The position numbers were made by a program, and so were the translations under genes. Shown here piece after piece: positions 1,003 to 19,188 of a stretch of 19,188 nt of DNA (position 1 is its first letter; every line of letters starts with the position of its first letter). Source of the DNA: Candidatus Thorarchaeota archaeon (GTDB lineage Archaea; Asgardarchaeota; Thorarchaeia; Thorarchaeales; Thorarchaeaceae); assembly GCA_048882485.1 (NCBI GenBank), contig JBHLRP010000057.1, forward strand, positions 1 to 19,188, read 5' to 3'. The notes beneath the pieces are model-generated. The model worked only from the letters and a program-made list of their open reading frames with translations. It ran no database searches and was not told the origin of the DNA.

Positions 1003-1006
1003 TATC

Positions 1007-1534: not shown

Positions 1535-1538
1535 GATA

Positions 1539-1898
1539 GTGTCACAATTACAGGAGTTCTTCAAATTTCTTTCTTCCAAGACCAATGAGAAGGAAGACCT
1601 CAAGAAAATGGTAGCGGACTGGATTGGCCCCTATGACGGAAAAATCCTGCAGGTACATACTGAAGAAGGTGACCAATACATGGTGGTCACCAAAGAAGGA
1701 ATGACACTTCATGAGGGTATCTATCCAAGTCCGGATGTGATATACAAAGCCAATTCTGCAACTCTCCTTGGCATCTTCACCGGTGAAGTGCCCTTCAAGG
1801 ACACAATGAGAGATGGCAGCCTCGAGGTCATAGGCAATGCACATGAGAGTGACTTTTTGGCCAATCTAATCCTTGCAGCCATGATGGGTGCGATGTAG
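1539..1898 (+). CDS. SCP2 sterol/lipid-binding domain protein
   Basis: GTG start after GGAGGA (1525-1530). 119 aa with an SCP2-like pattern: EGIYPSPDVIYKANSATLLGIFTGEVPFKDTMRDGSLEVIGN. Confidence 0.85.
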   Translation: MSQLQEFFKFLSSKTNEKEDLKKMVADWIGPYDGKILQVHTEEGDQYMVVTKEGMTLHEGIYPSPDVIYKANSATLLGIFTGEVPFKDTMRDGSLEVIGNAHESDFLANLILAAMMGAM

Positions 1899-1909
1899 GA
1901 GGGTCTGTT

Positions 1910-3034: not shown

Positions 3035-3043
3035 ATTTGAAAT

Positions 3044-3075
3044 GCAGGGCAAAACGCCCTGCCTTCCCCCTTTTT
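3044..3075 (+). terminator. Putative stem-loop terminator
   Basis: GCAGGGC (3044-3050) pairs with GCCCTGC (3056-3062), followed by CTTCCCCCTTTTT, starting 10 nt after the stop at 3034. Confidence 0.6.
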
Positions 3076-3118
3076 ACTATATCATCCCCTCTCACAGAAA
3101 TGGTATTTTAGGAGCGGA

Positions 3119-3126
3119 TTTTTAAG
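3119..3126 (+). promoter_or_regulatory. Putative archaeal TATA box for the enoyl-CoA hydratase gene
   Basis: TTTTTAAG about 35 nt upstream of RBS AGGTGA (3160-3165). Confidence 0.4.
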
Positions 3127-3170
3127 TAGGGCATATCCCAAACAGCTCAGATTTTCAACAGGTGATTGAA

Positions 3171-3983
3171 ATGCCAGAATTCGAAACAATGCTGTATAGC
3201 AAAGAGGGATCTTTCCTCTCCCCTGTGAAGAACACAGCGGTCATCAAGATGAACCGACTTGATGCACTCAATGCGATAAATGATCAATTCCTTCAAGACT
3301 TCAGCGATGCTCTAGATGAGGCCGAGAAGGATCCAGATATTCGCTCTATCGTGATTGCATCAAATCATGATAAGGTCTATTGCACTGGTGCTGACGTAAA
3401 GATGGCTCAGACGTTGCTGAGTGACCCAAGTAATGTAGGCGACCTCATAGCTCAAGGTCAGCAAATCGTTGATCGACTTGCCACAATGGACAAAGTGACT
3501 ATTGCTGCAATCAACGGACTGGCTCTCGGTGGTGGACTTGAGATTGCTCTAGCATGCGACATTAGGATTGCCGAGAAGGAAGCCAAACTGGGAACGCCTG
3601 AGGTGAGCTTAGGACTATTTCCTGCTTGGGGTGGATGCATGCGGCTACCCAGAATTGTGGGTCTTGGAAAAGCCATGGAACTGATTCTGACTGGTGGACA
3701 GGTGACAGCCGATGAAGCCATGGCCATGGGACTTGTGAGCAAAGTCGTGTCCAAGGATGAGCTTCTCAGCCAAGCAATGTGGTATGGTGCAAAGGTAGGA
3801 GGAAATGCTCCCATAGCGGTGAAGCTTGCTAAGAAGGCTACTCATTTGGCTCTGGAAGAGGGAACTGAACAGAACTTCAAATATGAAGTAGAAGCTTGTA
3901 CTGAGTGCTTTAAGACCAAGGACCTAGCTGAGGGAATCTCAGCTCTCCTAGAAAAGCGTCGAGGCAAATTCACAGGCGAGTAG
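3171..3983 (+). CDS. Enoyl-CoA hydratase (crotonase family)
   Basis: MNRLDALNAI, YCTGADVK, IAAINGLALGGGLEIALACDIRIA and LGTPEVSLGLFPAWGG; both catalytic Glu present. ATG 3171 is preferred over the track's GTG 3162 because that GTG lies inside the RBS AGGTGA. Confidence 0.95.
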   Translation: MPEFETMLYSKEGSFLSPVKNTAVIKMNRLDALNAINDQFLQDFSDALDEAEKDPDIRSIVIASNHDKVYCTGADVKMAQTLLSDPSNVGDLIAQGQQIVDRLATMDKVTIAAINGLALGGGLEIALACDIRIAEKEAKLGTPEVSLGLFPAWGGCMRLPRIVGLGKAMELILTGGQVTADEAMAMGLVSKVVSKDELLSQAMWYGAKVGGNAPIAVKLAKKATHLALEEGTEQNFKYEVEACTECFKTKDLAEGISALLEKRRGKFTGE

Positions 3984-3990
3984 AATTGTT

Positions 3991-4025
3991 GGTCCTCTCA
4001 CTAGGGAGGACCCCCCTCTTTCTTT
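3991..4025 (+). terminator. Putative stem-loop terminator between convergent genes
   Basis: GGTCCTCTC (3991-3999) pairs with GGGAGGACC (4004-4012): 9 bp with one G-U, loop ACTA, then CCCCTCTTTCTTT. Confidence 0.6.
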
Positions 4026-4057
4026 ATGCGGTGTGTAGTCACTGGACCAATTGGCAT

Positions 4058-5002
4058 CTAGCTATACCATTTCTTCAACCAGTTTAGAACTTCGTATCTT
4101 CTTAGCTCCTTGAATCCAATAGAGTCGTAAAGATGCTTTGCTGGATTCTCAAGGGTCACATCTAGGCGAACCCCACCAAGATCACTATAGGATGCCATCA
4201 GCCGCTTTAGTGTGTGTACCAGCAAAGCCCTTCCCAGACCCATTCGTCGTAGGTCCGGATCAATGCAAATGTCGGGTATATACGCATAGTTGCCTCGAAT
4301 TGTTATCAAGCATACGCCAACAAGAATATCAGCTTTCAACAAGACTCTTGAATCATCGGGGCTTCTGAATTCTCCATATCGATTCTCAATTGTGTTCTCA
4401 ATTAGCTTAATGGCAAGTTCTTCGGTGCTAAAGAACATAGGAAAGACATCCAAATCTATTGATCCCGCGTGACCTCTGAAAATTAGGTTACCAAGGGCTT
4501 CCTTCATTTCATCCTCAAAAGGAAGAAACGAAAAATCATCGCTTAATGGAGAATCATTTATCCTCTCCAGTACATCCCTGGTAATCTCCATCGAAGTGCG
4601 CTCGAAGCCTCTGAATCCTAAACCCTTTGCATGTTCACGCATACTGCCTTCAAGTGTACCACTTGTTTGAATCCAATCTCCCGTCGTCTTGAGACGGTTA
4701 AGTCCAGCTTCCAAGAGATCCTTCTGAATATCCTGAACTAGATGCCTGTCTAGAGCCTGGGCAGCTTCAGTCATGAAGATGATGCTTATGTTGTTAGATA
4801 CCAATCCGAGTACCACAATGCCAAGAATCTGATTCTCAGCATCCAACTTCGCATAAATTTCGATTGCCCGGCTATTCCAATTCTCGATGACTTGATCAAT
4901 AAAGGTTGGCGGGGGTTTCCGATTCTCTTCTAGAGATGCTAGATACTCTTCCAAAACTGACCTAACATCGTCGCGTCTGTCAAGTTCAAGGAGCTCTATC
5001 AT
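4058..5002 (-). CDS. GNAT-family N-acetyltransferase (probably tandem GNAT folds, N-terminal one degenerate)
   Basis: Acetyl-CoA motif A ICIDPDLRRMGLGRALL and motif B LDVTLENPAKHLYDSIGF in the C-terminal half; the N-terminal half ends in a similar AKGLGFRGFER segment. Confidence 0.88.
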   Translation of the reverse strand: MIELLELDRRDDVRSVLEEYLASLEENRKPPPTFIDQVIENWNSRAIEIYAKLDAENQILGIVVLGLVSNNISIIFMTEAAQALDRHLVQDIQKDLLEAGLNRLKTTGDWIQTSGTLEGSMREHAKGLGFRGFERTSMEITRDVLERINDSPLSDDFSFLPFEDEMKEALGNLIFRGHAGSIDLDVFPMFFSTEELAIKLIENTIENRYGEFRSPDDSRVLLKADILVGVCLITIRGNYAYIPDICIDPDLRRMGLGRALLVHTLKRLMASYSDLGGVRLDVTLENPAKHLYDSIGFKELRRYEVLNWLKKWYS

Positions 5003-5158
5003 AATTTCAAACCATGACTGAGGGTTCTAAGTGATTTGGTTCAGCGCAATTGCATGGAATTGCCACAAACACTAAGATAATGCCCTTCAAAACGAATCTT
5101 CTTCTAATCGTCAACCTTAAGTCCTCGTTGAATGAGAAATCGCGAGTAGTTACGGATT

Positions 5159-5191
5159 GAAAAAACCTGTTTTATGTTCCATAAGCAGGTT
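5159..5191 (+). promoter_or_regulatory. Putative BRE/TATA promoter of the thiolase operon, overlapped by an inverted repeat
   Basis: A-run (5160-5165) then TTTTAT (5170-5175), about 37 nt before ATG 5212. Imperfect inverted repeat AACCTGTTTTATG-ttc-CATAAGCAGGTT at 5164-5191. Confidence 0.45.
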
Positions 5192-5211
5192 CTGACACCG
5201 GAGGAAAAGAA

Positions 5212-6378
5212 ATGGCAAGAAAAGTTGCTGTCGTTGCTGGCGGCCACAGCAAATTCGGAAAACGGTACGATGCCACCATGAGAGAATTGTGTGCGGAAGC
5301 ATACAAGCCAATCTATGATGAAGGTATAACTCAAGACAAGATTGACGCCTCAGTTCTCTCCTATGCTGCATCTCAGTTCACTGGGCAGGGTGCCGGTTCA
5401 GCTCTAATAGCAGACTATATCGGGCTTCACGACAAGCCACATCTTAGGGTTGAATCAGCATGTACCACTGGCACAGCCTCACTGAGAGCTGCATGGGGCA
5501 TGGTAGCCGCTGGGCTTTATGATGTGATGTTGGTGCTTGGAGTAGAACAGATGAACAGGGTGTCATCTGCCACTGCTACTGAGTATATGAGTCAGGCAGG
5601 TGATATGCGCTGGGAATATCCCTTTGGAATCAGTTTCCCTGCATTCTATGCCTTAATGGCTTCGAAGTATATGGCTGAGTACAATATGCCGCACGACATA
5701 TTGGCGAAAATAGCAGTGAAATCTCACCATTATGGTGCTCAAAACCCGAAGGCACATCTCCCAAAAGAGGTGTCATTTGAGGAGGCGAACAACGCTGTTC
5801 CAATCTGCAGACCTTTGAATCTATATGACTGCAGTCTCATAACAGATGGTGCTGCTGCTGTCGTGATTGCCGCTGAAGACCGTGTGAAGGAGTTCACTGA
5901 CCGGCCAATGTGGATCAAAGGCATTGGAGCTGGAGCATCTGAGATGATGATTCAGGACCGTCCAAGCTTGACCTCAATTCCAGGAGCGAAAAGAGCCGGA
6001 AAGGCTGCCTACGAGATGGCGGGAATTGGTCCAGAGGACATCAACATGGCTCAGGTTCACGACTGTTTCACGATTGCTGAGCTCATTGCATATGAAGACC
6101 TAGGATTCGTTGAACCAGGAAAGGGCCCCGAGTTTGTCGAAAGCAAAGAGATGTATCACGATGGTAGACTGCCCGTAAATGTTGATGGCGGACTGAAGAG
6201 TAAGGGCCACCCGCTTGGCGCAACGGGAGTGTCAATGACATATGAGATACTGAAACAAATGCGTGGCGAGGCTGAGAAACCGTCACGCCAGATAAAGGAC
6301 GTTCAATATGGTTTGGCACACAACGTTGGGCAGAGCGGCCAGTTCGTCAACGTCTTTATCTTTGAGAGGGGATTCTAG
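5212..6378 (+). CDS. Archaeal thiolase (acetyl-CoA C-acyltransferase, SCP2-thiolase-like HDCF type)
   Basis: Active-site RVESACTTG, then VHDCFTIAE, NVDGGLKSKGHPLGATG and C-terminal AHNVG. RBS GGAGG about 5200-5204. Confidence 0.95.
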   Translation: MARKVAVVAGGHSKFGKRYDATMRELCAEAYKPIYDEGITQDKIDASVLSYAASQFTGQGAGSALIADYIGLHDKPHLRVESACTTGTASLRAAWGMVAAGLYDVMLVLGVEQMNRVSSATATEYMSQAGDMRWEYPFGISFPAFYALMASKYMAEYNMPHDILAKIAVKSHHYGAQNPKAHLPKEVSFEEANNAVPICRPLNLYDCSLITDGAAAVVIAAEDRVKEFTDRPMWIKGIGAGASEMMIQDRPSLTSIPGAKRAGKAAYEMAGIGPEDINMAQVHDCFTIAELIAYEDLGFVEPGKGPEFVESKEMYHDGRLPVNVDGGLKSKGHPLGATGVSMTYEILKQMRGEAEKPSRQIKDVQYGLAHNVGQSGQFVNVFIFERGF

Positions 6379-6794
6379 TGGCAGAGAAGAAGGAGCTTTA
6401 CCTGGGATACTCGTCGGATCGAGCTATGACCCCAATGCTTCAAGAATTTAATGAAGCTCTTGATCAAGAGAAGCTGATGAAGAGTGTCTGTACTAGTTGT
6501 GGTGCAGAGTATCTCCCTCCAAGGCAACACTGTCAGAAGTGTCTCAGCCAGTGTACGCTAGAGGAGTTCACTGAGCGTGAGGCTAAACTTGTTTCCTATG
6601 TGGTTGTCGAGTTTGCTCCTGAGAGTCTCTCAGCAAAAGCTCCCTACGTGGTGGCTATTGGAGAGTTTCCATCTGGGCGTAGACTCACAGCCCACATTAC
6701 GAATCTCATGAGCATGCCTGAAGTCGGAATGACTCTGAAGCTCGGCTTCGAACACATAGATGAGAAACGTCTAACCTACAAATGGCTAGTATAG
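6378..6794 (+). CDS. DUF35-family Zn-ribbon/OB-fold acyl-CoA-binding partner of the thiolase
   Basis: CTSCG...PPRQHCQKC Zn ribbon and APYVVAIGEF OB-fold motif. The GTG start overlaps the thiolase TAG (TAGTG). Confidence 0.93.
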   Translation: MAEKKELYLGYSSDRAMTPMLQEFNEALDQEKLMKSVCTSCGAEYLPPRQHCQKCLSQCTLEEFTEREAKLVSYVVVEFAPESLSAKAPYVVAIGEFPSGRRLTAHITNLMSMPEVGMTLKLGFEHIDEKRLTYKWLV

Positions 6795-6798
6795 AAGA

Positions 6799-6832
6799 AT
6801 GAGGGCTCTCAGCCCTCATGAATTTCTTTTTC
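6799..6832. terminator. Perfect 9-bp hairpin plus T-rich tract; probable terminator of the thiolase-DUF35 operon, possibly bidirectional
   Basis: ATGAGGGCT (6799-6807), loop CTC, AGCCCTCAT (6811-6819), then GAATTTCTTTTTCT. Confidence 0.65.
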
Positions 6833-9800
6833 TGTCTTTCCTAATAATAGCTTGGCCTTTTTCACTACGTTTGGATTTCGTTTCATCCAACCAAAGAGCT
6901 TGGCTCGTTTCTTTCGATCATTTGGCGGTGCTATCAGTCCCAATAGGGCCGCATGTAATTTCCGTCCAGCTTTGATTGTCCAATGGGCTGATACTCTTCC
7001 TGTAACCTCAGAATAATTCAAACCCATGAAATATTCTCTGGCGGCCATACCGTTATTCCTCAGGAGATTCTTTTCATCCATGAGTAGTGTGGGTGGAGTT
7101 AACGGAATCACCTCAATAATCTCGGCAGCTATTCGTGCGATTAATCCGTCCTTCCTCTTTGCAAGTCTGGATAATCGGGTTGGGGTCATAAACCAATACC
7201 TGCGACCCGCTATTCTCTTCTCTTCACTGAATTTCTCAACGAGATTTGCATGGTATTCTCCAAGTGGATTCTTGGAGCGCTTTTTCGGATCATAAAGTAC
7301 AACTGCTCTTCCAATTCCGAATTCTAATCCCTTTTTTGATTTCATGATTCTCACCCATCCTTCCTCAGGTATGACCTCTTCCAGATATGCGCGTTGAACC
7401 TCCATAGGGCCATCCAATATGAACGATGGCAAGTGCATTCCCTTTAGGACCTTATCTCCTGTTGGAATCCCAAAGCTGTGCATCAGCCTTCCTAAAACCG
7501 GAGGCAGACTGAAACCAACAACTTCTCCATCCTCGGTTAAGTCTCGAGTGTAGACATCTCCCAAAGCACCAAGCCACTTTCTGACAATGGCACGTCGATG
7601 TGCGTTTCTCTCAGAATAGGATGTTGCGAAATCATCAGCAATGTGGCCATCAGATGCCAAAATTGCGAATAGGCGAGCGGCAATCACAAGGAAATCCTGT
7701 TTCGAGAGAATCTTAGGATTTGATAATTGGTTTCTCTTTCCTATAGCCGCTATCTGATCCTCAACATCAAAAATAGACTTGTCATTTGCCTCGAGGATGA
7801 ACCTCAGGGTTTGCCCAATGAGATAATCTGTATCGAACCTGAGATCTGAATTTGTGCCACTCTCGGGAAGCTCGTCCACACGCCCGACATCTGTCATCTG
7901 TCTAACTAGTTTGCTGAGGTTGAATTGGCCTACCCCGCCAAGAGCCTTCATTGCATCTCGAATGAGCGTTTCTTTGAAAGCTTGGTCAAAGTAGAAAAGT
8001 TCTGAACCCAACAACTGGAAGTAATCAAGCGGGTCATCCTCGACCTTTCGAATGAAGAGCGTGTTTTCGACAATCCCCACGCGAAGACCGTTCTCGCTCC
8101 TCACTCTCATCAATCTCTCGATATCTCCTCTGTTCTCAAATATGAACTTGGCAAGTTCTGTTAGCCACCTCGGGTTTTCGTGATTGTAAGATCTCAGCTT
8201 AGCAAATGAAATGGGCCGTGTCAAATCCTCAGTCAATTTTAGGAGTGAGTTAGCGACCTTTCTCACAGTCAGATGCTCTCTCTTTCTGAATCGTTTGAGA
8301 GATTGATACAACTGTTCGGATGGAATCAAATTCATTCTCGCATTCTCTGAAAGGGCATTCTCGTACTCCCTACGTTTCCTTTCATTATTTGCTAGCTGAA
8401 CCAGAAATGGAGACTGCAATCCTTTGTGGAACCAATTTGTAACAGTCCCGGCTGGTTGTCCGACACGTCGGGCTATCTCTCTGTATGACATCTCAGGGTA
8501 GCGTTTCTTCAATTCCAAGGAAGCAAAGTACGCTCTCACTCGCTCGTTTCTGTCATTGAAATCTAGCAAATCATGGAGATATGGATGTCGCTTCAGAATC
8601 CTCTTATACTCGGTCCACGTTCTAATTCTGTGAGCATCAGAGACTTTCGACGGCCTAGGGGTGGCAATTCCCGATTCTCTCTCGGCAACCTGTCGTAGGA
8701 GGATTGGAATCCGTTTGCCGCGTCCCCAATCATTGACCGTAGGAGCTGAGAGACCGTGCTTTTGTGCATATGCTCTAGCAAGGGCTTGTAATGGCATTCC
8801 AACATTCTCTAATGCAAAGTCAAAGAAGCCATAATACAGCTTGACTCTCTTTCTGCGTTGAAGGAAATCCTTTGATTTCTTCAAATCAGAATGCTTTCTG
8901 AGAACTTTGAGAAATTCTGAATATAATCTGGGGATTCCTGGAAGGAACATTGGTGTACTGACACTGACATCACTCTCCATCCTCTTGCGGAGCACGGAGA
9001 CAAGATAAGGGGCAGTTTCTCCCTTGACCCATCTTCGAAGAGTTCCTCTATTAACCTTGAACTTAGCTGCGATTTTCTTGAGTTGTTCTGGAGAGGGTTC
9101 ATCAGCTATCACGCCAGCATCTTTGGCAGTCATGACCTCTACCCACGTCCTATACTCCCTGTACCACCTGCCGAAGTCTGCCCTTTCCTTGAGGTCTGGA
9201 ATTAGCTCCAGCATCTTGTCTACAACTTCAGGCATCCACTCCGCGGTGACGCTAGGCTCATGTAGGGGTTCATCATCTTCTATTTCGGAGAACTCTTTGG
9301 CCAGCTTCAGCAACGCCAGCCATCTGCGCTCTGCAATGAACTTCTGAAGGTCGACTATCAGTTTGGGTGGTTTACTCTCAGCTTTCTCATCCTCTGACTT
9401 GCTGAGATATTCAATAGCATCTCTCTGTGCAGCAAGAAAATCGCTGTCATCCCATACCTCAGGGACCTGTTTCAACGCCTCTCCCAAGTCTTCCTCAGAG
9501 TCAATGTCCTTGAATAGCAGAGGCCTGATCTTCTCCCGTTCTTCTTCACTTAGGCTCTCCCATATTTCCCCTAAGACTCGACTCAATCTCTCCTCCCGCG
9601 ATTCAGGAAACATCGAGGGTGCATGCATCCCTTCTTCGATATATAGCTCACCGGACCACAGGTCTCGTTTGACAGACGGATGGTCTGTCAGGACATCCAG
9701 AATCTCGGCGAGTCCTTGCTCTTGCTCCTCGTCAGATTCAGTTTCGCCTTGTTCAGCTTCAGTTTCTTTTGTGTCGACCTGTGACTCATTCGAGTCGTCT

Positions 9801-10864
9801 AAACTGGTTTCACTTCCCTCATCTTGGACAACGTTAGAAGCGTCATCCTGTGACTCATGATCAGGTGCTTCTATTTCCTCGGATTGGTCTTCATTGTCAG
9901 ACTGTGGTTCAGCGAATTCATCAGGTGCATCCGGATCTGAATGGTCAGCGTCTTCTAAATCTGTTGAGGAATCATCGACTTCCCGAGAGGAAGACTGGTC
10001 TTCTTCCAAATCATGCACTGATTCAGTTCCCTCATTCGAGGAAGTTTCAGTCGCATCTTGAGTGTCCTCTGAGGACTCCTTTGCGGTTTCATCATGCTCA
10101 GCGAACTCATCTAAGGTAGATTGCTTGGTTTCCTGACTTCCTCTGGTTGACTGGCTCCTTTCTAAATCACCCTCACCGACTCCGCGCATTGGAGCTTCTT
10201 CAGGATTATCATTGAATGATTTTGGACTTCTAGCTTCAGTTGCTTCTTCTGAGGGTTCTGGAGCAGGAGATTGCTCACTGGTGTCTTCTTGCTCCGGTTC
10301 AGGTTCTGCTTCCTCAGAAAGCTGGCCTTTGTTAGAAGATTGACTCTTTTCAGTATCTTTTTCCGATTCAGGAGTTTCTTCAGTTTCAAGCTCCGACTCA
10401 CTCTCTGCTTTCTGGACCTGCATGGTCCCATCGCCAGAGTCATGATAGCTGTCTGTAGTTTCTGTGGGGTCTGCTTCTTTCTCCGCCCTCTCAGTTCCAT
10501 AATAGCGTCTAGCTTCCTCAGAGAATGCCTCTTTTGCAGGGCATTTCTCATGCATTTCGTGGACATACTGGTCATGAAGGTCTTCTCTGGCTTCAGACAT
10601 ATTGTTTAAGACTTCCTGTGATTCTGCATCTACCTCTTTCGCAGCCTCACCGGTATCTTTCTCATCTTCCTCGTACCATTCACGCTCAAGCTGGTCAGAT
10701 AGCTCTCTCATTTGTCTGCTGGCTTCCTCATTCTCCCGCGCTTCGTCCTCCTCCATCGCTTCCTTGAGCCTTTCAGCCAGCTCTCGCATTCGTTCTTTGG
10801 ACTCGTCATCCAAGTCTTCATCCGTTTCTCTCGGATCAGAGTACTCCCGGCCCTCACTACTCAT
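6809..10864 (-). CDS. 1351-aa multidomain protein: acidic disordered N-terminus, tandem HTH-containing repeats, C-terminal LAGLIDADG (DOD) endonuclease-like domain
   Basis: aa ~1-385 are strongly D/E/S-rich. Three HTH-like motifs end at W612, W713 and W811. LAGLIDADG-like blocks: RLFAILASDGHI (D1072), GIPTGDKVLKGMHLPSFIL (K1138), QRAYLEEVIPEEGWV (E1168). Starts 10 nt after the ATPase stop, with a G-rich RBS. Confidence 0.8.
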   Translation of the reverse strand: MSSEGREYSDPRETDEDLDDESKERMRELAERLKEAMEEDEARENEEASRQMRELSDQLEREWYEEDEKDTGEAAKEVDAESQEVLNNMSEAREDLHDQYVHEMHEKCPAKEAFSEEARRYYGTERAEKEADPTETTDSYHDSGDGTMQVQKAESESELETEETPESEKDTEKSQSSNKGQLSEEAEPEPEQEDTSEQSPAPEPSEEATEARSPKSFNDNPEEAPMRGVGEGDLERSQSTRGSQETKQSTLDEFAEHDETAKESSEDTQDATETSSNEGTESVHDLEEDQSSSREVDDSSTDLEDADHSDPDAPDEFAEPQSDNEDQSEEIEAPDHESQDDASNVVQDEGSETSLDDSNESQVDTKETEAEQGETESDEEQEQGLAEILDVLTDHPSVKRDLWSGELYIEEGMHAPSMFPESREERLSRVLGEIWESLSEEEREKIRPLLFKDIDSEEDLGEALKQVPEVWDDSDFLAAQRDAIEYLSKSEDEKAESKPPKLIVDLQKFIAERRWLALLKLAKEFSEIEDDEPLHEPSVTAEWMPEVVDKMLELIPDLKERADFGRWYREYRTWVEVMTAKDAGVIADEPSPEQLKKIAAKFKVNRGTLRRWVKGETAPYLVSVLRKRMESDVSVSTPMFLPGIPRLYSEFLKVLRKHSDLKKSKDFLQRRKRVKLYYGFFDFALENVGMPLQALARAYAQKHGLSAPTVNDWGRGKRIPILLRQVAERESGIATPRPSKVSDAHRIRTWTEYKRILKRHPYLHDLLDFNDRNERVRAYFASLELKKRYPEMSYREIARRVGQPAGTVTNWFHKGLQSPFLVQLANNERKRREYENALSENARMNLIPSEQLYQSLKRFRKREHLTVRKVANSLLKLTEDLTRPISFAKLRSYNHENPRWLTELAKFIFENRGDIERLMRVRSENGLRVGIVENTLFIRKVEDDPLDYFQLLGSELFYFDQAFKETLIRDAMKALGGVGQFNLSKLVRQMTDVGRVDELPESGTNSDLRFDTDYLIGQTLRFILEANDKSIFDVEDQIAAIGKRNQLSNPKILSKQDFLVIAARLFAILASDGHIADDFATSYSERNAHRRAIVRKWLGALGDVYTRDLTEDGEVVGFSLPPVLGRLMHSFGIPTGDKVLKGMHLPSFILDGPMEVQRAYLEEVIPEEGWVRIMKSKKGLEFGIGRAVVLYDPKKRSKNPLGEYHANLVEKFSEEKRIAGRRYWFMTPTRLSRLAKRKDGLIARIAAEIIEVIPLTPPTLLMDEKNLLRNNGMAAREYFMGLNYSEVTGRVSAHWTIKAGRKLHAALLGLIAPPNDRKKRAKLFGWMKRNPNVVKKAKLLLGKTEKEIHEG

Positions 10865-10874
10865 TCCAATCCCC

Positions 10875-13800
10875 CTATGCTGTAGCCTTCTCTAACTCTG
10901 TGTGCACGTCTGACAACAATGGCTCATCGACTGGATTGCTGTACTCTTCTGAAGCAAGCTGAATGACCTTGACAGCCAGGGGAAGAAGAGCATCATCACC
11001 AGCCGCACCTATCTTGGCTGTTTCAACTGCTAGTCGAACAATGTACTGCAACTTCCCTGTCCTTGCCTTTTCCACAGCAATGTGATAGACTCTCTCAAAC
11101 TCTGGATTCCTCACAAGACGCAATAAGGCATGCACAGTTTCATTATCCAAGATGAAAGACATCTTTGACTCCCGAAGCTCAAGAGTCTTGAGAATGTGCT
11201 CGGGCAGTTTCTCATGAATGAAACGTTCTGGCTCACGTTCAAAGAAGTCTTTCATTAACTCAGTGACCTTGGTATTAGGCCATCTCTGTTCATAGGGTGA
11301 CGCAACGAGAATATCTCTCAAACTGAATACCTGAACGTTCAAAGGAGAGTCATGTCGGTCTAGAAGAACGATCGCTTCACCTGTTTCAAGTCCCCCGATG
11401 TGCAATTTCTGGCTCTCATCACACCTCGTGAGACTGGTTGCTAGGTCCACCTCTTCATGTCTGACCTTGTGAATTATCACATTCTTTGGAATTGTCAGAG
11501 CCTCCTCTACTAACAGTCCTGGCAGCTGGTCGATGAGAAGTAGCCCGAGTCCATTGCCACCTATGACTCGGAGCATTCTAATGATGCTGTCCATGGCCTG
11601 TTCTGTTGCGGACTGTCTACCATCAGTCCTACGAGCGACTTTCTTCAACAGTGTATGTGCCTCTTCAAGGACCAAGACATTCTCAATAGTATTTGCAGGA
11701 TTCGCCATTCGATACTCACTGATTCCGCCAGTCAAGATGCCCATGAGAAGCTCTGCGTGAAGGTCACTAAGTCCTTCTATCTCGATGATGGTTGGATGCT
11801 CCAGCAACTCTCTGAAGGTCACACCTCCCCTCGTGTTGAACATCCTCACAAACTCCGGATTCATGAGGATAGCCTTCATCCTGGTTCTTAGCGCACCAGC
11901 AAAGTTTCTGGACACCTCGTCACCATACTTTAGGTCATTCTCAATATAGTACTCGATCGCATCATGGAGGTCAGAGAGAAGGATAGGCCTTCCTCTCTTG
12001 TTCGAGTTGACATCCCATTTGCAGATCTGGTATGCACGCTGGAGGATGAGCTTGAAGTGCATGGTTATGACATCCTCGTTAGGCAACCATGCATGAAACA
12101 CGTCAGAGAGCCTCTCGATCCACTTCACAAGCGAGACCCCGTCAGGAGGCTCCCAGAAGTTGAGGAGAAATGGTGATGTGTCAGGGTCTCCAGCGGTGAA
12201 TATCCGAATGTCTGGGAATAACGACCGTAGTAAACGCCAGTCACGGACCTTGTGTGGGACAATGATGATGGGCTTGACACCAATGTAGATCATCTGGGCA
12301 ACTATGCAGACTGACGTCCATGTCTTGCCAGTCCCCGTTGTTCCAAAGACGGCAAAGTGGCCCCGCATGTCCGATGGCTTCAGCCATACTGGGTTCCCAT
12401 GGTCAGGCCTTCCACTGATGGTCAGTGGGAATCCCAAGAGGACTACACCACACGGGTCATGCCTCCACCATCGGTCTTCGTGGACCTCTATGAGACGCTG
12501 CCTAGTATATTCCAACTCGCCCTTTGCATCAAAACGGATATGACTGACTGGAATTTCTGGAAAGGCTGTGGGGAATGACTGTCTCCTTGATATCTTGATA
12601 CCCATTGTTCCTCGGGGCAGGACTATCAAAGAGGCTGCTTCAGATAGATGCATTAGTGTGGCGCTGCCATGGGGCAGTCCATCAACTACTCTTAGGACAG
12701 CATCCTTCTGCTTTATTGCCGTCAGTTGAAGATCACGTTTCTCATCTGCAGGCCTTATGCTACTCACCAGGGTGTGCCCCAACTGGCTGACAGCTCTCTC
12801 CGCCTTTGCGGCCCTTGGTGCCCATGCCACCAAATTGACACGCACATTGCACGCAACCAATGCTTCTTGTCGTCGCAACTCGGATGCATGACGTCTTGCC
12901 GTCATTGATGCAACGGTGTCGACCTCGGTATAGGTGTCTTCACCTCTTGCTCTACTCTTCTTTGACTTCCTGAGTTCGGACTCCAGTCCTCTTCGAGCCC
13001 ACCATTCCTGAAGCATTCCGCCTCTTGTAGGATCAATCCAGACCTGCACGATTCCATTCTCTATTCCTTGAAGAGCATCAGCTATGGCAGTTAGTCCATT
13101 CACAGTTTGCCGATTGTCCTCGACGGATAGAGGCTCTCCTTGAAGCATCAGACCACGCACTTCTATGTTGGAAATGACAGTTGTTTTTGGAAATCTGTCA
13201 TGAACGATGACTCGAAAAGCTCCGAGGCTTGTCTGAACCTTTCCCACCAGACTCAGGACATTTTGACTGAGTGTTCTGCTATCAGAGGCGCGGCTGAGTA
13301 GGAACACACGTGTCCTTCGATTAACCCTCTGAATCCTGACTCCAAATGGAATGCCAGAATGCGTCACAGCCTTGAGAAGGTTGTAGAAGGGTTCTGCAAG
13401 GATCCACCTGTCTGTGTGCTGTGCCTGTGGAAGGAGGTGGTCCTGTGGTATCTCTACTACTTCAACTCCTCCCACATAGCCGTCAGCAAGAGAGGCGTCA
13501 TTTTGGACTATGTTCTTGATTGACTGAACAATCCCTCGCCTCTGAATGGGCAACGATTGTGTCTGATTTCGGTATTGAAATACTAGAACACCCATCACGA
13601 TTATTCCAGTGGATATGATGAGCGCCACAAACGATGGGATGGAGGGAAAGAGAGCCTCGATCAGACTCATTGGTATACCAACAAGGAAGACCCCAATGGT
13701 GCCAAGCACTACCGCTGGTCCAGAGTAATCCTTGAGGATGTTCCAGTTGTCCTGGAAGGCTCCGGCATACAGACCTCCTCCAATGCATACTAGAGTGATT

Positions 13801-13934
13801 AGAAATCCTAGACTACTTAGTCCCTCATTCATGAATGGATTCAGCGCAACCAGCACCGCTTTGACTATTGACGCTGAGATAAGGGCACCGCCTGCACAAA
13901 CCGCTAGTTTCAGCAGTGAACCTACTACACCCAT
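10875..13934 (-). CDS. Membrane-anchored HerA/VirB4/FtsK-superfamily (DUF87-like) P-loop ATPase
   Basis: About four hydrophobic helices in aa 1-120. HFAVFGTTGTGKT Walker A (12321-12344), VLVLEEAH Walker B (11655-11678), and LLLIDQLP conserved-Gln strand. RBS GGAGG at 13942-13946 (minus). Confidence 0.88.
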   Translation of the reverse strand: MGVVGSLLKLAVCAGGALISASIVKAVLVALNPFMNEGLSSLGFLITLVCIGGGLYAGAFQDNWNILKDYSGPAVVLGTIGVFLVGIPMSLIEALFPSIPSFVALIISTGIIVMGVLVFQYRNQTQSLPIQRRGIVQSIKNIVQNDASLADGYVGGVEVVEIPQDHLLPQAQHTDRWILAEPFYNLLKAVTHSGIPFGVRIQRVNRRTRVFLLSRASDSRTLSQNVLSLVGKVQTSLGAFRVIVHDRFPKTTVISNIEVRGLMLQGEPLSVEDNRQTVNGLTAIADALQGIENGIVQVWIDPTRGGMLQEWWARRGLESELRKSKKSRARGEDTYTEVDTVASMTARRHASELRRQEALVACNVRVNLVAWAPRAAKAERAVSQLGHTLVSSIRPADEKRDLQLTAIKQKDAVLRVVDGLPHGSATLMHLSEAASLIVLPRGTMGIKISRRQSFPTAFPEIPVSHIRFDAKGELEYTRQRLIEVHEDRWWRHDPCGVVLLGFPLTISGRPDHGNPVWLKPSDMRGHFAVFGTTGTGKTWTSVCIVAQMIYIGVKPIIIVPHKVRDWRLLRSLFPDIRIFTAGDPDTSPFLLNFWEPPDGVSLVKWIERLSDVFHAWLPNEDVITMHFKLILQRAYQICKWDVNSNKRGRPILLSDLHDAIEYYIENDLKYGDEVSRNFAGALRTRMKAILMNPEFVRMFNTRGGVTFRELLEHPTIIEIEGLSDLHAELLMGILTGGISEYRMANPANTIENVLVLEEAHTLLKKVARRTDGRQSATEQAMDSIIRMLRVIGGNGLGLLLIDQLPGLLVEEALTIPKNVIIHKVRHEEVDLATSLTRCDESQKLHIGGLETGEAIVLLDRHDSPLNVQVFSLRDILVASPYEQRWPNTKVTELMKDFFEREPERFIHEKLPEHILKTLELRESKMSFILDNETVHALLRLVRNPEFERVYHIAVEKARTGKLQYIVRLAVETAKIGAAGDDALLPLAVKVIQLASEEYSNPVDEPLLSDVHTELEKATA

Positions 13935-14173
13935 CTTGTGGCCTCCGTATCCAGATACTCCCAGAGTCTGCGAGGCTTCCGACAGGACATAATGTCCATC
14001 ATGTAGCTCCGTTCTATAGGTCTGACAATGAGTCCTTTAGAGTCCTCTTTTCTTGGTACCAGCGCAGGGCTTCCTGACGATGGATATAGAGTGACTCTGA
14101 CATGGAGCTGCGTTTCCGCATCTTCATTCTTCTCCTCTATTGCATCCACCATAGTTGATCGTAGCCTCGACAT
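13925..14173 (-). CDS. Small hypothetical protein, first gene of the ATPase-endonuclease operon
   Basis: RBS GGGTGA about 6 nt before ATG 14173. The 3' end overlaps the ATPase start by 10 nt and contains the ATPase RBS. Confidence 0.55.
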   Translation of the reverse strand: MSRLRSTMVDAIEEKNEDAETQLHVRVTLYPSSGSPALVPRKEDSKGLIVRPIERSYMMDIMSCRKPRRLWEYLDTEATRWV

Positions 14174-14276: not shown

Positions 14277-14290
14277 ACGCCCTAGGGCGT
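14277..14290. repeat. Perfect 14-bp palindrome ACGCCCTAGGGCGT
   Basis: Identical to its own reverse complement; abuts a minus-strand TTATATG (14277-14271). Function unknown. Confidence 0.6.
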
Positions 14291-14721
14291 GAACTAGACC
14301 CTTATTATCTCATATTCATTCAAAATGGATATTAGATGTTGTTTTCTGGTTATGAATTGAGGAAAAATGACCCATGTATGTATTGTGTATCTCGTCGAAC
14401 TTGTTGAAATCTCGTGACCCTCTACAAACCACCTTTCATCTTTCACTTCTACAAAGCAGATTAGACCAAAGAGTAAACTGCCGAGAGTGAATGCTATTAT
14501 CCTGCCCTCTATAGCGCTCCACGCTGGTGTTGGCGAGGCCTGACTCCATAATATCTCATGCATGGCCGGATACTTTTCAATCCATGCCAATGGACTCAAT
14601 TCCTTACGATGTCACTGGTGAGGGTATCAAGCGTGTAGCTTCCCCTACCCTATTGCGTCAAGGAGAACCGGAACCCACATATCGCGCTGTTTTCATGCAG
14701 GGAACGTATGTGGAGGTATAG

Positions 14722-16506
14722 GTGATAGGAGATACGAGGATGATGAAGACGAGATTGGCTGGCTTCGCGATGTTTGTAGTCCTGATGAGCATCACAAATC
14801 CACTTAGTCTGTCGGCAACATGCCTCACCATAACTATGGATACTGAGCCTCTACATGTTTCAGCTCAACAGGCTCCAATTGAAATAAACCACAATGACAA
14901 CTTCACAACTCAAGGATGGCCGGGGAGTGGGACTGCTATTGATCCTTTCATCATAGAAGGGCTCTCCATCCTTACCTATGACGGAATCTCAATATCCATC
15001 AGTGGGACGACTGTACATTTTGTCATCCTTGATTGCGAGCTCAACAGTATCTCCTTTTCCTCCCTAGAGCATGGAGTGGTTGAGAACTGCTCTTTCGACA
15101 GCAATGGTGCTGCAAGCATTCTCATCGAAGATTCCGACAACTGTACCATTCGAAACAACATCATTTTTGGATATGCAGAAAATGGCTTACTCCTCGATAA
15201 CAGCACTCACACAAGCATCTTGGACTGCATCATACATGGTATGGGATATGGCATTCATTTCAAAAATAGGTATGCCGCCCCCTATGGCAACATTGTCGAT
15301 AGCAATCGCATCTATGGCTGTAATGCTCTAGGTGGTATCGCTTTGACCAACATTCAAGGTGTTCTAATCAGAAACAACACCGTGTATTCGAATAATCAGA
15401 ATGGCATATATCTGGGAAGAGATGCCGTTGCAAATATGGTTACAGGAAACCACCTTGGCTGGAATGGAGAGAGCTACTACAACGCCTATGACTTCGAGGG
15501 AGCTTCAGCAAACAACAATTGGAGTGGAAACTACTACAGCGACTATAGCGGTTCAGGTGACTATCTTGTACATACCCCTGGTATTACTGTTAGAGACCAG
15601 ACACCCGGACTCTGGGAGTACGATGGCATCCCGACTATCAATTCTATTCCTGACTTCTCAGTGGAATGGAGCATAGGTGGGTTTTTCCTCTACTGGTATC
15701 CCGAAGATCGTTTCCCCTCGCGATATGAAATCTTGGACAATGGAACACACGAGTATTTTGACACTTGGGACCATCGAGGCATTGAGTTTCATGTACGAGG
15801 CGCTGTATATGATATAGGCGTTCACAACTTCACCATTATCGTCTCTAACGCTGTGGGGAACTCGACCTCAGATACAGTCTTTGTGAACATCCGACCTCAG
15901 AAGCATAACCTTCGCTGGGCAGTGGAGAACGGGACTAGACTGGACTATGAAGTGCAAATTCGAGGCAGTCACTCTCAAAATCGGACTGGTGAGCTGTATC
16001 TCTTGGTCGATGAGCCACCAGAGATATCTCCTACCCTTGGTGGATTGCCTCTTCTAACGGCCAGAGGGTACTGGTCAGGGAATGACTCAGAGATCGAGGA
16101 CTGGTATGACCCGCCATCAAGCAAAAACCACTTCCCTCTGGCAGTAGTCATGCCCATAGGAAATTGGTCTCAACTCACTGTCGTATTGACTGCATATGGG
16201 AAAAGCTTCAATCAATCACAGATTGGAGAGCATGTCTTCTATCTTCTCGAAACCGAGTCAACTTGGGGCTATCGATATGTCACATTAGACAATGATGCCG
16301 TTGTGGAAACCGTAGTGCTTTGGTCTAAGGATGATGGGGCTCTGGAAAGCATTGAGGCGTTGATGGAGTATAACACTGGTACTTGGGCTAGTTATGTACT
16401 CCAGAGGATAGAACGGCCAATCATACCTATCCCTATCCTACTCTCAGTTTCACTTGGAATCCTGGCCATAGTGGTGGCTATTGTAGTAATACGGAAGCGA
16501 AGATAG
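14722..16506 (+). CDS. Cell-surface protein: signal peptide, NosD-like parallel beta-helix, Ig-like domain, C-terminal membrane anchor
   Basis: Hydrophobic N-terminus, GWPGSGTAIDPFIIEGLSI cap, beta-helix repeats (NCTIRNNII, IRNNTVYSNNQNGIYL), Ig-like GVHNFTIIVSNAVGNSTSDTVFVNI, many N-x-S/T sequons, and a C-terminal TM helix plus IRKRR. RBS GGAGG at 14712-14716; alternative ATG starts at 14740/14743. Confidence 0.88.
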   Translation: MIGDTRMMKTRLAGFAMFVVLMSITNPLSLSATCLTITMDTEPLHVSAQQAPIEINHNDNFTTQGWPGSGTAIDPFIIEGLSILTYDGISISISGTTVHFVILDCELNSISFSSLEHGVVENCSFDSNGAASILIEDSDNCTIRNNIIFGYAENGLLLDNSTHTSILDCIIHGMGYGIHFKNRYAAPYGNIVDSNRIYGCNALGGIALTNIQGVLIRNNTVYSNNQNGIYLGRDAVANMVTGNHLGWNGESYYNAYDFEGASANNNWSGNYYSDYSGSGDYLVHTPGITVRDQTPGLWEYDGIPTINSIPDFSVEWSIGGFFLYWYPEDRFPSRYEILDNGTHEYFDTWDHRGIEFHVRGAVYDIGVHNFTIIVSNAVGNSTSDTVFVNIRPQKHNLRWAVENGTRLDYEVQIRGSHSQNRTGELYLLVDEPPEISPTLGGLPLLTARGYWSGNDSEIEDWYDPPSSKNHFPLAVVMPIGNWSQLTVVLTAYGKSFNQSQIGEHVFYLLETESTWGYRYVTLDNDAVVETVVLWSKDDGALESIEALMEYNTGTWASYVLQRIERPIIPIPILLSVSLGILAIVVAIVVIRKRR

Positions 16507-16582
16507 CTACGATTCAGTCTTTAATCCGGTTTCCCTATCAGCATTCCCAATGCAAAGCAAGTAGGATCGGAATTCAGCAGGA

Positions 16583-16633
16583 CTACAGGACTTGGCGCTT
16601 GCCGCAATAGATGCATGTCTGTATGCCTCCCTT
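16583..16633 (-). pseudogene. Relic 3' end of a paralogue of the 16735-17652 gene
   Basis: Translates KGGIQTCIYCGKRQVL*, versus ERGVTTCPNCGKRQVL* in the intact gene. 30 of 39 nt are identical between 16580-16618 and 16732-16770. No start codon in the open frame. Confidence 0.7.
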
Positions 16634-16734
16634 ACAGACAAAAAGAGAGCCAGAAGAAACTTTGTTGAATCTTACATCTTGGCGATGGCAAGGATTACAA
16701 CAGGATACATCAATTGAACCAACTATGCTGTGGA

Positions 16735-17652
16735 CTACAATACTTGCCTCTTACCGCAATTGGGACATGTAGTGACTCCTCTCTCTTCCTTCGGAATCAG
16801 CATCTCTCTACCGCATTCGGAACAAGTGCGCACATGATGAGTTGCAGTCCGCTCGGACTCTCTAATCATTTCAATGTCCTCAGCGGTTGCTTCAACGTGA
16901 GAGATCATCCGCCCCAGACCGTCTCCTATCAGGACGGGGAAGAATGCAGCCACATAGGCATAACCGACCAAAATCAACAGGTATGGACTCCATCCTTCCA
17001 GGAGTACTGCATAGGCAATCAAAGGAAGTGCAACTATAAGAGTCAGCGCATAAGTGAACTGATTGTTTCGTTTCTCAATCAATAGCTCCTTTCTCATCCA
17101 CAGGTAGGCAATCATTGTCTTGCTCCATCTGCGTTCCTTCCTAGTGGCAATAGCCAATCCCACACTGCCGAAGAATCCCATCATGGCCTCACCCAGAAAG
17201 AGGTCGTTGAAGTCATAGTCCTCCCATACTGGACTGGTTTCAATGTTGAACGAAATTACACCTTCCACTGGACATGTGTTCATAGTTGATGGATTGCTCA
17301 GGACCACATGCCACTCACTCTCCCAAGGCACCACTATCTCCAATCGTGTTGGCTCCTCGTCAGATATGCGCGTTTCATTCAGTGCGTCATAGACTCGACC
17401 ATCCGCCCAGTTCTCATACTCGGAAGCGTTGAGAACAAGAATGTCCAAGAAGTGTCCCTGAGTGTCCAGCTCATAGGCAATCTTGTTTGCTGCATCAACG
17501 TGCCCAGACCATACCGTATGGCCTGACGCTTCTATATTCTCCGCATTGAATGTTTCGACCTGATTCATCCTCTCAAAGACGATGAGTCCACTCAGAATAC
17601 CAATGGTGACTATGAACGCGGCAAGAAGAGCTGCAGGTATTCTTCGATTCAC
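16735..17652 (-). CDS. Membrane protein: N-terminal TM, beta-rich (probably extracellular) domain, three TMs, C-terminal Zn ribbon
   Basis: GTG start with RBS GGAGTG (17666-17661), four hydrophobic segments, C-terminal CSECG...CPNCG. Confidence 0.8.
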   Translation of the reverse strand: MNRRIPAALLAAFIVTIGILSGLIVFERMNQVETFNAENIEASGHTVWSGHVDAANKIAYELDTQGHFLDILVLNASEYENWADGRVYDALNETRISDEEPTRLEIVVPWESEWHVVLSNPSTMNTCPVEGVISFNIETSPVWEDYDFNDLFLGEAMMGFFGSVGLAIATRKERRWSKTMIAYLWMRKELLIEKRNNQFTYALTLIVALPLIAYAVLLEGWSPYLLILVGYAYVAAFFPVLIGDGLGRMISHVEATAEDIEMIRESERTATHHVRTCSECGREMLIPKEERGVTTCPNCGKRQVL

Positions 17653-17676
17653 AGACGAAACACTCCGGGCTAGTTA

Positions 17677-18069
17677 TTATTGAAGTCGCTTGGGTTTGTG
17701 CTTCCAAGCCAGATACGAGAAGACCATTGTTAGAATGACTGCAGGATACAACATGATGTAAATCGTCCAATAGGCAGCATATGTCAAGGTCACGAAAAAG
17801 AACGCTGCCGCTGAATACCATGCATGGGACCGTTCCTTCTTCTCCTCTCTGATTGCCCGTTCCTCAGGTGTCAACATCCTCTCCGTCGAGGGTGGGACAA
17901 TCTCCGTCATCGACAGAACCACGTTTATGTCGTTGACCTCAGCCTCAATCCATTGACGGAACTCTGGCGGTGGAGCATTGGTGGACTCTGTGATGAGCAC
18001 CTCAGTGGTGGTGAAGTCCTTGTGCCGAAGGGTCACCCTTGTGCGATTCTCTTCTTCTACTTTCCTCAC
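17677..18069 (-). CDS. Hypothetical membrane protein with two C-terminal TM helices; true start may be TTG 18096 with an in-frame TGA
   Basis: Hydrophilic N-terminal region, two hydrophobic helices and a basic tail; 24 nt from the next gene. Confidence 0.65.
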   Translation of the reverse strand: MRKVEEENRTRVTLRHKDFTTTEVLITESTNAPPPEFRQWIEAEVNDINVVLSMTEIVPPSTERMLTPEERAIREEKKERSHAWYSAAAFFFVTLTYAAYWTIYIMLYPAVILTMVFSYLAWKHKPKRLQ

Positions 18070-18126
18070 GACCTTCCCTCATAGGATACGACTCAAAGCC
18101 CATACCACTCCTAGAACTACTTAATG

Positions 18127-18145
18127 GACTTCTGAAATATAAGTC
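18127..18145 (-). promoter_or_regulatory. Putative TATA box (TTATATTT, 18142-18135) framed by inverted repeat GACTT-N9-AAGTC
   Basis: About 24 nt upstream of RBS GGAGTGG (18111-18105). Repeat arms at 18127-18131 and 18141-18145. Confidence 0.4.
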
Positions 18146-18728
18146 ATCCCAGAAAGTCGTTGAGGTCCGTTTCTTTCATTTATTGACTCGGGACATGAAA
18201 TGCCTCAGAAGTGTAAGAAACAGCAGTTCCGTTCTACCGCGCTCTGTTGGTCTTATGGGAAGGTTGACTCTGAGCGATTGAAGATTGCCCGTTGGTAGTG
18301 GTGGCTTAATACCCTAAACCAGCCAAGAGCTGTATGAGTGTTCTGAGAACGTGCCGCGTGATGACGGTGCGGGTCTGTCAAGCTCTCAGGGTGCCCTTTC
18401 TCCTCCTGCCTAGCTTTTCAACCTTCCAAAGGGGAAACGATTTTCCACCGGTTTCCGAGTCATCATTTCTCCTCTGGATACAGAAACTAAATCCCACTTA
18501 TGAAAGAAGGCTATACTCCAACTGAAGAATAAGACTGTTAAATGGGTGGCAATAAACGACACTGATGTGACTCTAAACGGCTAAGCATACACCAAGAGAG
18601 CGGTAGAAGCCACTGAGATGAAAGCCTTGGTCTATTAGGACACTTAAGAAGGCTTAACCTGTGAGGGGAAGTCATCCTTCTACTCGTACGGATTACTCAC
18701 GAAACTCATGCGATTCTTTTCAGGAGAG

Positions 18729-19188
18729 CTACGAGGGAATTATGCTTGTATATCCGTCCCATCTACGAATACCTGTAGGGCCATTTGCAAGGACACCTAC
18801 GTATACATGTGACAGATTATGAAGATCAAAAGAGGTCTGAAATGTCAAGCTGACTTTTTCATTAACAGCTAGAGAAAAATCACCATCAATTACAGTTATC
18901 TCACTCGTAGTCTTTATCTCACCAAGTGACGAATTGAAGTCTATCAGTCTGTCCTCAACACATATGATTGCCTTTTCGATATGATAGAGATCACCTTGTG
19001 GGATTGGATAGTTCTTGAAGCTCTCAACCATACAAATAACAGTAAATGATACAGTTCCATTACTATAGACCGCTTTGTCAGTGATCTTGAGGTATAAGAC
19101 AAGTCGGGGAAGCTCACCATCATCAGGCGAAGGACTGACTAGATAGAGAGTGAGCCCTCCACTGACTATGCAAGCGATAATTATGCAA
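18729..19188 (-). CDS. Partial (5'-truncated) membrane-anchored or secreted protein with a beta-rich domain
   Basis: The frame of the track ORF 18729..19031 stays open to the window end and adds CIIIACIVSGGLTLYLVSPSPDDGELPRLVLYLKITDKAVYSNGTVSFTVIC, a hydrophobic signal/anchor. The real start is therefore probably outside the window. Confidence 0.7.
   Translation of the reverse strand, partial: CIIIACIVSGGLTLYLVSPSPDDGELPRLVLYLKITDKAVYSNGTVSFTVICMVESFKNYPIPQGDLYHIEKAIICVEDRLIDFNSSLGEIKTTSEITVIDGDFSLAVNEKVSLTFQTSFDLHNLSHVYVGVLANGPTGIRRWDGYTSIIPS

Follow-up and report, generated by a model that had tools for sequence, protein, structure and literature searches.

A membrane ATPase and its arm-nuclease partner as the candidate engine of a homing-type mobile element in Asgard archaea

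Analysis of a 19,188-nt stretch of Candidatus Thorarchaeota DNA (contig JBHLRP010000057.1 of assembly GCA_048882485.1; hereafter, the window) revealed a module in which the gene of a 1019-residue membrane ATPase is followed by that of a 1351-residue protein carrying a long acidic arm and a nuclease tip. With moderate confidence, we interpret this pair as driving a mobile element of Asgard archaea that spreads by homing and has no integrase, with the ATPase as its transfer motor. The two genes are separated by a 10-nt gap and preceded by an 82-residue open reading frame (ORF) that overlaps the ATPase gene by 10 nt; all three lie on the minus strand, convergent with a thiolase-DUF35 operon, and purine-rich motifs resembling ribosome-binding sites (GGTGA, GGAGG, and GGGGG) precede them, at the coordinates and in the arrangement that the first-pass annotation of this DNA had described. 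Contigs of three public sequencing runs, which may be the source samples, span the junction of DUF35 with the giant gene and show zero differences. Below, G000 denotes this genome (90.5% complete), G005 that of its closest relative, and L-numbers individual loci.

The pairing of the two genes is strikingly constant. The ATPase was found in 36 of the 70 same-family genomes searched, often in at least two copies, as well as in three other Asgard families (five genomes), and close homologues carry the label Candidatus Thorarchaeota. Once near-duplicate loci had been removed, a co-oriented partner lay directly downstream of the ATPase at all 71 non-redundant loci that had room for one; 67 of these 71 partners begin with at least 20% Asp and Glu, as against 5% for background ORFs, and a held-out locus set gave the same pairing behavior. 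The adjacency that the first-pass annotation had proposed to check among homologues thus held, together with a patchy, multi-copy distribution and variable loci: flanks mostly differ from locus to locus, and in ten genomes of the same genus DUF35 is followed by other genes. Most of the distant bacterial-type homologues have no such partner, and viral contigs yielded distant ATPases only, likewise without the arm-nuclease protein. Separately, one distant ATPase homologue (L197:2600-8542) is accompanied by a 1696-residue acidic partner of no known family and then by a HEAT-repeat gene. No integrase recurred among the 98 neighbors of the pair; neither integrase nor relaxase was found in the window or among the 25 families listed out of 110 for matches by at least two of these neighbors. 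GC content and third-position GC did not differ from those of core genes, and no terminal repeats of note were seen in the window.

While the ATPase and the arm are constant, the tip is not. The 56 complete partners carried tips of type A (LAGLIDADG; 38), type B (canonical LAGLIDADG_3; 10), type C (multiple helix-turn-helix [HTH] motifs with an HNH-like domain; 3), type D (NUMOD3 and HNH; 2), type E (an unassigned domain, PD-(D/E)XK-like by eye only; 2), and type F (a third LAGLIDADG-like domain; 1). All identifiable tips are of homing-endonuclease types with DNA-binding arrays. Different tips were found on near-identical ATPases (window/L052, 86%; L023/L032, 88%; L077/L134, 91%; L025/L169, 92%), and in L023/L032 and L077/L134 an arm identity of 64-94% falls suddenly to ~15-25%. 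On the ATPase tree, 12 tip changes are needed where the minimum would be 6 (two truncated tips were typed by the domain that precedes the tip). Tips also occur free-standing, beside tRNA genes, or broken as pseudogenes, with the free-standing copies interspersed among the fused ones in the tree. Such free copies would be expected if the nucleases were selfish homing genes in their own right that had joined the arm time and again, leaving the ATPase-arm pair to hitch-hike while doing an unrelated job. We regard this explanation as scarcely probable, given that no tip-less arm was found among the 56 complete partners and that ATPase, arm, and upstream DNA travel together between loci (L077/L134, 90% nucleotide identity over 5.5 kb).

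Several further tips were noted along the way. Free-standing type A endonuclease genes lie 12-160 nt from tRNA-Phe, tRNA-Thr, and tRNA-Glu genes (L062, L064, and L069), and a closed genome of another Asgard family (G036) holds six distant type A endonuclease genes (L053-L058). G000 itself contains five more tips (C14:1-2427, C136:1527-3611, C26:171-1736, C20:246-850, and C4:102400-102600), comprising a type A, a type B, a C-like, and two broken type A copies; those on C14 and C136 stand at contig ends and may belong to unassembled modules.

The arm-nuclease protein opens with a conserved leader (residues 1-160) that begins M-x-x-E-G-x-E and runs into a low-complexity stretch (residues 161-390) of 35% Asp and Glu and 15% hydrophobic residues. 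A helical region then leads to three HTH-containing repeats, a further Xre-like HTH (about residues 958-1040), and the terminal LAGLIDADG domain. A further role of the acidic arm may be to damp the body of the protein, which is basic and binds DNA. On the whole protein, Pfam returned HTH matches only; the LAGLIDADG domain was missed by the sequence searches (Pfam and PDB profile) and was found by fold search alone. An AlphaFold model of residues 882-1351 (predicted local distance difference test [pLDDT] 88) matched two-motif LAGLIDADG endonucleases of the intein type (7qsu, Z 17.6, root-mean-square deviation 2.5 over 191 residues), with Z 17.0 to I-Tsp061I, Z 16.6 to PI-PfuI, and a Foldseek E of 1e-5. 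The giant multi-HTH LAGLIDADG protein proposed in the first-pass annotation is confirmed at the level of fold. By motif position, D1072 (in ASDG) and E1168 (in PEEG), each at the end of a motif helix, were assigned as the catalytic acids; no full-length type A tip lacks the first, and nearly all have Asp or Glu at the second position. Their conservation in fused and free-standing relatives alike suggests that the enzyme is active and not a domesticated fold of the WhiA kind. No HINT splicing family was among the Pfam matches of the protein, and the LAGLIDADG domain closes its own ORF rather than being of the intein- or intron-encoded type.

A further line of evidence comes from the host gene on the other side of the junction. 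Compared with G005, the window differs at 32 of 1193 nt before position 6405 (2.7%) and at 97 of 390 nt after it (24.9%): identity is 97% through the thiolase gene and the first ~10 codons of DUF35 and then drops to 75% up to the stop codon. The changes are mostly silent, leaving the DUF35 protein 88% identical despite the nucleotide divergence, and the genes beyond the normal DUF35 locus are again 94% identical between the window genome and G005. The hairpin at the end of the operon is also present in relatives without the island, and island-specific DNA starts just past it. We infer from this sequence comparison that DUF35 is the homing target and that the stretch from 6405 to its stop codon is a co-conversion tract. 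The module, which had been described as unrelated to its neighbors, thus appears to have arrived together with the adjacent DUF35 gene end. Replacement of an adjacent host-gene segment by donor-type sequence is expected of intronless homing, and it was seen in the break near 6405 and, at several other loci, as duplicated gene ends.

These other loci show several forms of the same pattern. In L041, from another lineage, the island also sits at DUF35, with a displaced DUF35 tail (residues 92-138) on its far side, while in L136 a full OB-fold gene stands beside an HNH tip and a displaced 358-bp tail (84%) lies upstream. Duplicated gene starts were seen for gcvT in L077, for urocanase in L188, and for another gene in L134, and duplicated 3' ends that look tRNA-like by eye in L034 and L037, neither of which yielded a complete tRNA in ARAGORN. 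Tip and target also correlate: L023, L044, and L188 all precede urocanase and carry type B tips that are 38-48% identical, although the ATPases of L023 and L044 are only 31% identical, and L189 and G000:C136, whose type B tips are mutual best matches, precede one and the same gene. A test of orientation, in which the downstream gene was convergent at 25 of 47 loci compared with a genome baseline of 40%, was not convincing and was dropped. As side observations, fragments resembling genes that follow tips lie upstream of the ATPase at L181:1189-1326 (the tail of F2, a small gene discussed below) and L179:1304-1417, both in module orientation, and L136 has two displaced tails; together, these suggest serial element replacement at one site.

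This pattern of gene ends and tips is what intronless homing with co-conversion, an established mechanism (PMC2988022), produces, and the same mechanism would account for tips of the rare-cutter kind, for the missing integrase, and for the fact that no immunity gene occurs here. In the mechanism we propose, the HTH array and the LAGLIDADG domain would recognize a long site within a conserved gene of an element-free host chromosome (DUF35 is the probable target here) and cut it, and host recombination would mend the break from the donor copy, importing the island along with the diverged donor end of the gene. This donor allele would itself resist cutting, so that no immunity gene would be needed. 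Exchange of the tip, through recombination in the arm or in the HTH repeats, would retarget the element to a new gene. Finally, the ATPase would engage the constant acidic leader and move nuclease-bound DNA, or the nuclease itself, to another cell, standing in for relaxase and integrase. Judged by the genomic patterns, cutting, donor repair, and retargeting by tip swap are probable. Transfer is the least supported step; we infer a cell-to-cell motor from the family of the ATPase and its obligate linkage to the nuclease. That such modules form a new class of self-mobilizing elements in Asgard archaea, in which a swappable endonuclease replaces integrase and relaxase and one VirB4-like membrane pump, holding on to the constant acidic leader, spreads the element together with a recoded host-gene end between cells and species, is offered tentatively. 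Of the three options raised by the first-pass annotation, a DNA-transfer module with site-specific cutting comes closest, with the difference that the nuclease looks selfish rather than domesticated because of the tip swaps, the free-standing and pseudogene copies, and the replaced or duplicated ends of flanking genes. The first-pass annotation had overlooked both the variability of the tips and the replacement of gene ends.

Several observations weigh against this homing-type reading. The exchanged DUF35 allele could be that of G005; the window is singled out by the last 60 nt only, and our assignment of the exchange to it draws mainly on these and on the position of the island. The displaced DUF35 tail was not found in this genome, and a duplicated host end was detected in ~8 of the 47 loci tested, where flanks were short. 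Channel genes (VirB6/CedA) or pilin genes do not recur among the neighbors of the pair. TrbL/VirB6 was not found in the 90.5%-complete G000; divergent components may lie elsewhere. In the ATPase, the usual position of the arginine finger is occupied by Gly792 (Arg789 is close by and might substitute); 31 of 54 close homologues, the window copy among them, have Gly there. One distant ATPase homologue (L167:5659-7680) has an acidic 673-residue partner with a weak zincin-like tip (ATLF, below the cut-off). Lastly, 15 of 33 type A tips are followed by F2, in the place where an immunity gene would be expected.

The last two points speak for polymorphic toxin export, in which the ATPase would use the acidic leader to secrete or deliver a variable nuclease that kills neighboring cells, F2 would confer immunity, and free tips would be orphan cassettes. 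This amounts to the exporter-plus-cargo option of the first-pass annotation, which is not favored but is the main rival. The definition given in PMC3482391 is matched by the constant N-terminus, the recombined C-termini, and the stand-alone cassettes; the presence of F2 tracks the subclades of type A, whether the tip is fused or free, and the N-domain of the ATPase modestly matches a subunit of ESX-3 (6lar_G, Z 9.7). F2 is, on the other hand, absent from this genome and from behind type B, C, D, and E tips, and it matched no family in Pfam, PADLOC, or the atlas. The WXG100/LXG trafficking domain gave no match in the giant protein or in G000, the latter being incomplete. Moreover, the tips are rare-cutter types with long DNA-binding arrays, and the replaced gene ends and the match of tip and target would be left unexplained; the parts of PMC3482391 searched mention LAGLIDADG, NUMOD, and 'homing endonuclease' 0 times. 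Because of F2 and the one non-nuclease tip in a distant relative, we rate toxin export as unlikely and not lower.

The ATPase itself (model pLDDT 82) is built of four predicted transmembrane helices (residues 1-125), an alpha/beta N-domain resembling the VirB4 N-terminal domain and DUF8128 (~153-450), a motor of the FtsK-HerA superfamily (~495-900), and a helical tail. DUF87 scored above cut-off in Pfam, Walker A (531-538, with K537), Walker B (754-760, with E757-E758), and Q803 are intact, and the ratio of nonsynonymous to synonymous substitution is 0.07-0.22. Its best Foldseek matches were R388 VirB4, in an alignment covering both domains (148-888), and its atlas matches included a DUF8128/TrwB/TraG-D cluster (TM-score 0.61-0.64); the N-terminal HAS barrel of canonical HerA is not present, its place being taken by the transmembrane helices and the VirB4-aligning domain. 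Since the VirB4 match spans both domains and is joined by the DUF8128/TrwB/TraG-D matches, the modeled ATPase stands nearer to the secretion and coupling ATPases than to the HAS-barrel HerA type; of the earlier designation as a HerA/VirB4-like membrane ATPase, membrane location and VirB4 likeness stand, while HerA proper does not. A prediction of the complex between ATPase residues 153-990 and leader residues 1-158 scored 0.13 against a mark of 0.32, which is not evidence either way. Two other ATPase groups were noted in passing: a second, genus-wide DUF87 ATPase of 1257 residues (L163:8429-12202, on G000:C21), whose N-terminal region is weakly related and which has no acidic partner, and a sister subfamily (L147, L194, L195, and L196) preceded by a hydrophobic gene of 265-292 residues without a Pfam match.

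Two further explanations turn on this motor. In a membrane-tethered defense system, a HerA-like motor would activate or feed the nuclease against viral or plasmid DNA, and an arms race would diversify the tips. The motor core does resemble DndH-C (Z 29.9, with VirB4 at 28.3, HerA at 25.2, and TrwB at 23.0) and defense HerAs, and the module is patchy, multi-copy, and located in islands. Nevertheless, transmembrane helices and a VirB4-like N-domain replace the HAS barrel, the neighbors of the pair are mostly metabolic rather than defense genes, gene-end replacement would go unexplained, and the catalogue check (PADLOC and NCBIfam) matched no system above cut-off, with weak partial PADLOC matches only. 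We consider defense distinctly improbable and the weakest of the three options first proposed. Alternatively, the pair could be a domesticated host machine for DNA uptake or exchange, similar to Ced or Ted, with a processing nuclease. CedB and CedD are membrane-bound FtsK-HerA ATPases that import DNA (PMC11823120), and the ATPase has a weak NCBIfam match to CedD (35 bits against a cut-off of 600). This idea appears very improbable, as the pair was not found in about half of the same-family genomes, its loci vary, its tips turn over fast, and no CedA or pilin genes neighbor it.

The other features of the window are listed with those of the pair in Table 1. The 82-residue ORF, which had been counted as a gene of the module, proved to be a truncated remnant: its last ~53 residues are 47% identical to the C-terminus of a 302-residue protein with multiple transmembrane helices (family F5), whose gene is intact at three related loci and absent from most. 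A 74-residue version of the remnant precedes a paralogous copy. F5 was also considered as a homologue of the ATPase N-terminus, which hhalign rejected. A 329-residue F5 homologue occurs at L162 (G000:C22:20000-30500) in an operon with a DEAD-box helicase, a RecA-like ATPase, a Rad51-like protein, and an XPG/FEN1-like nuclease, possibly a cluster for DNA repair or uptake. The region upstream of the ORF that is shared with a second module copy marks the left limit of the duplicated unit, and a perfect 14-nt palindrome (14277-14290) lies within it, upstream of the operon. Beta-helix genes such as that of the putative cargo were found near the module at 9 loci, and the far junction of the island probably lies just past the contig end. 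Positions 18711-19188 have an 89% copy at G000:C17:58614-59103, a segment bordering the genes normally found after DUF35; this suggests the far junction, or else a rearrangement or strain mixture. Positions 16729-17026, within the Zn-ribbon membrane gene, have a 95% copy at G000:C34:27881-28178. On the other side of the module, positions 238-6794 hold an ordinary beta-oxidation cluster whose genes, putatively named from sequence features, encode nitroreductase-like and SCP2-like proteins, a hydroxyacyl-CoA dehydrogenase, a crotonase, a divergent GNAT, a thiolase, and DUF35.

Table 1. Features of the window bearing on the module
Feature	Position	Strand	Detail or basis
Donor-type part of host DUF35/OB-fold gene (6378-6794), ~codon 10 to stop	6405..6794	+	comparison with G005
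Hairpin, 9-bp stem	6799..6819		sequence; end of thiolase-DUF35 operon, overlaps last codons of giant gene
1351-residue arm-nuclease protein	6809..10864	-	ORF, Pfam, fold model
Two-motif LAGLIDADG domain, tip type A (~residues 1053-1340)	6847..7708	-	fold matches
Three ~95-residue HTH-containing repeats (residues 549-835, net charge +25)	8360..9220	-	Pfam and fold
Acidic arm	9695..10864	-	leader and low-complexity stretch
1019-residue membrane ATPase	10875..13934	-	Pfam, transmembrane prediction, fold searches
82-residue ORF, truncated remnant of 302-residue F5 gene	13925..14173	-	homology
Upstream region, 84% nucleotide identity to second module copy of near-identical genome	14174..14418	.	
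Probable island cargo: beta-helix/NosD protein, Zn-ribbon membrane protein, small ORFs	14419..19188	.	

The first-pass annotation knew of no described system that pairs such a motor with a LAGLIDADG protein, and our literature and catalogue searches agree. The literature search, which did not cover one relevant review on archaeal polymorphic toxins, returned no description of the pair; a paper on Atabeyarchaeia mobile genetic elements makes no mention of HerA, VirB4, or LAGLIDADG, and 2026 papers on the Asgard defensome and archaeal immunity gave nothing relevant for the terms searched. Nor did a gene-transfer machine of Thorarchaeota turn up in the literature searched. What is new here is the census, the swap pairs, the DUF35 breakpoint, and the correlation of tip and target. 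If the proposal is true, these modules would supply a meganuclease family that is retargeted in nature, whose HTH arrays are modular and whose targets can be predicted.

Among known systems, the FtsK-HerA motors of HerA-NurA, Sir2-HerA, HerA-DUF4297, and DndH are likewise coupled to nucleases (PMC10853773); these systems are soluble, and their partners are NurA, Sir2, DUF4297, or restriction endonucleases, not LAGLIDADG proteins. Polymorphic toxins, including those of the type VII secretion system (T7SS) with EssC/EccC (PMC3482391), share an FtsK-HerA ATPase, a constant N-terminus, a swapped C-terminal nuclease, and orphan tips, whereas the module has no WXG/LXG domain, no universal immunity gene, a single motor domain, and rare-cutter tips. 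VirB4, VirD4-TrwB, CedB, CedD, and the patescibacterial DUF8128-TraG/D proteins have the same N-terminal transmembrane segment, VirB4-like two-domain body, and Walker A/B motor; the module differs in lacking VirB6/CedA, pilin, and relaxase genes, in its homing-type nuclease partner, and in the Gly that its clade has at the usual arginine-finger position. As with integrative conjugative or mobilizable elements (ICE/IME), an island with its own coupling-type ATPase sits at the end of a gene or tRNA, with a duplicate that restores it, but no integrase or relaxase was found, and in place of short att cores there are long, diverged duplicates (63-84%). The module thus falls outside the definitions of ICE/IME, type IV secretion or Ced systems, T7SS toxins, and HerA defense systems. 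Aloposons (PMC8813620) are different again, with proteins of 3,000-6,000 residues, a ParA-like ATPase, and tRNA sites. Closer parallels are offered by homing ORFs of fungal mitochondria with partial duplications of atp6, atp9, and cox1 (PMC7487136), where an endonuclease also lies beside a duplicated or displaced host-gene end, although these are organellar and have neither a motor protein nor modular tip exchange. The free-standing seg and mob endonucleases of phage T4 (PMC2988022) likewise cut a conserved neighboring gene site-specifically, with donor repair co-converting the flanks, tRNA regions among the targets, and no integrase or immunity gene; here, by contrast, a long acidic arm is joined to the nuclease, a membrane ATPase always accompanies it, and the module sits on cellular chromosomes with kilobases of cargo and swaps between nuclease families. 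By analogy, the module would act like a free-standing homing endonuclease while having the island structure of an IME; its parts were already known, and the combination and the modular retargeting are new.

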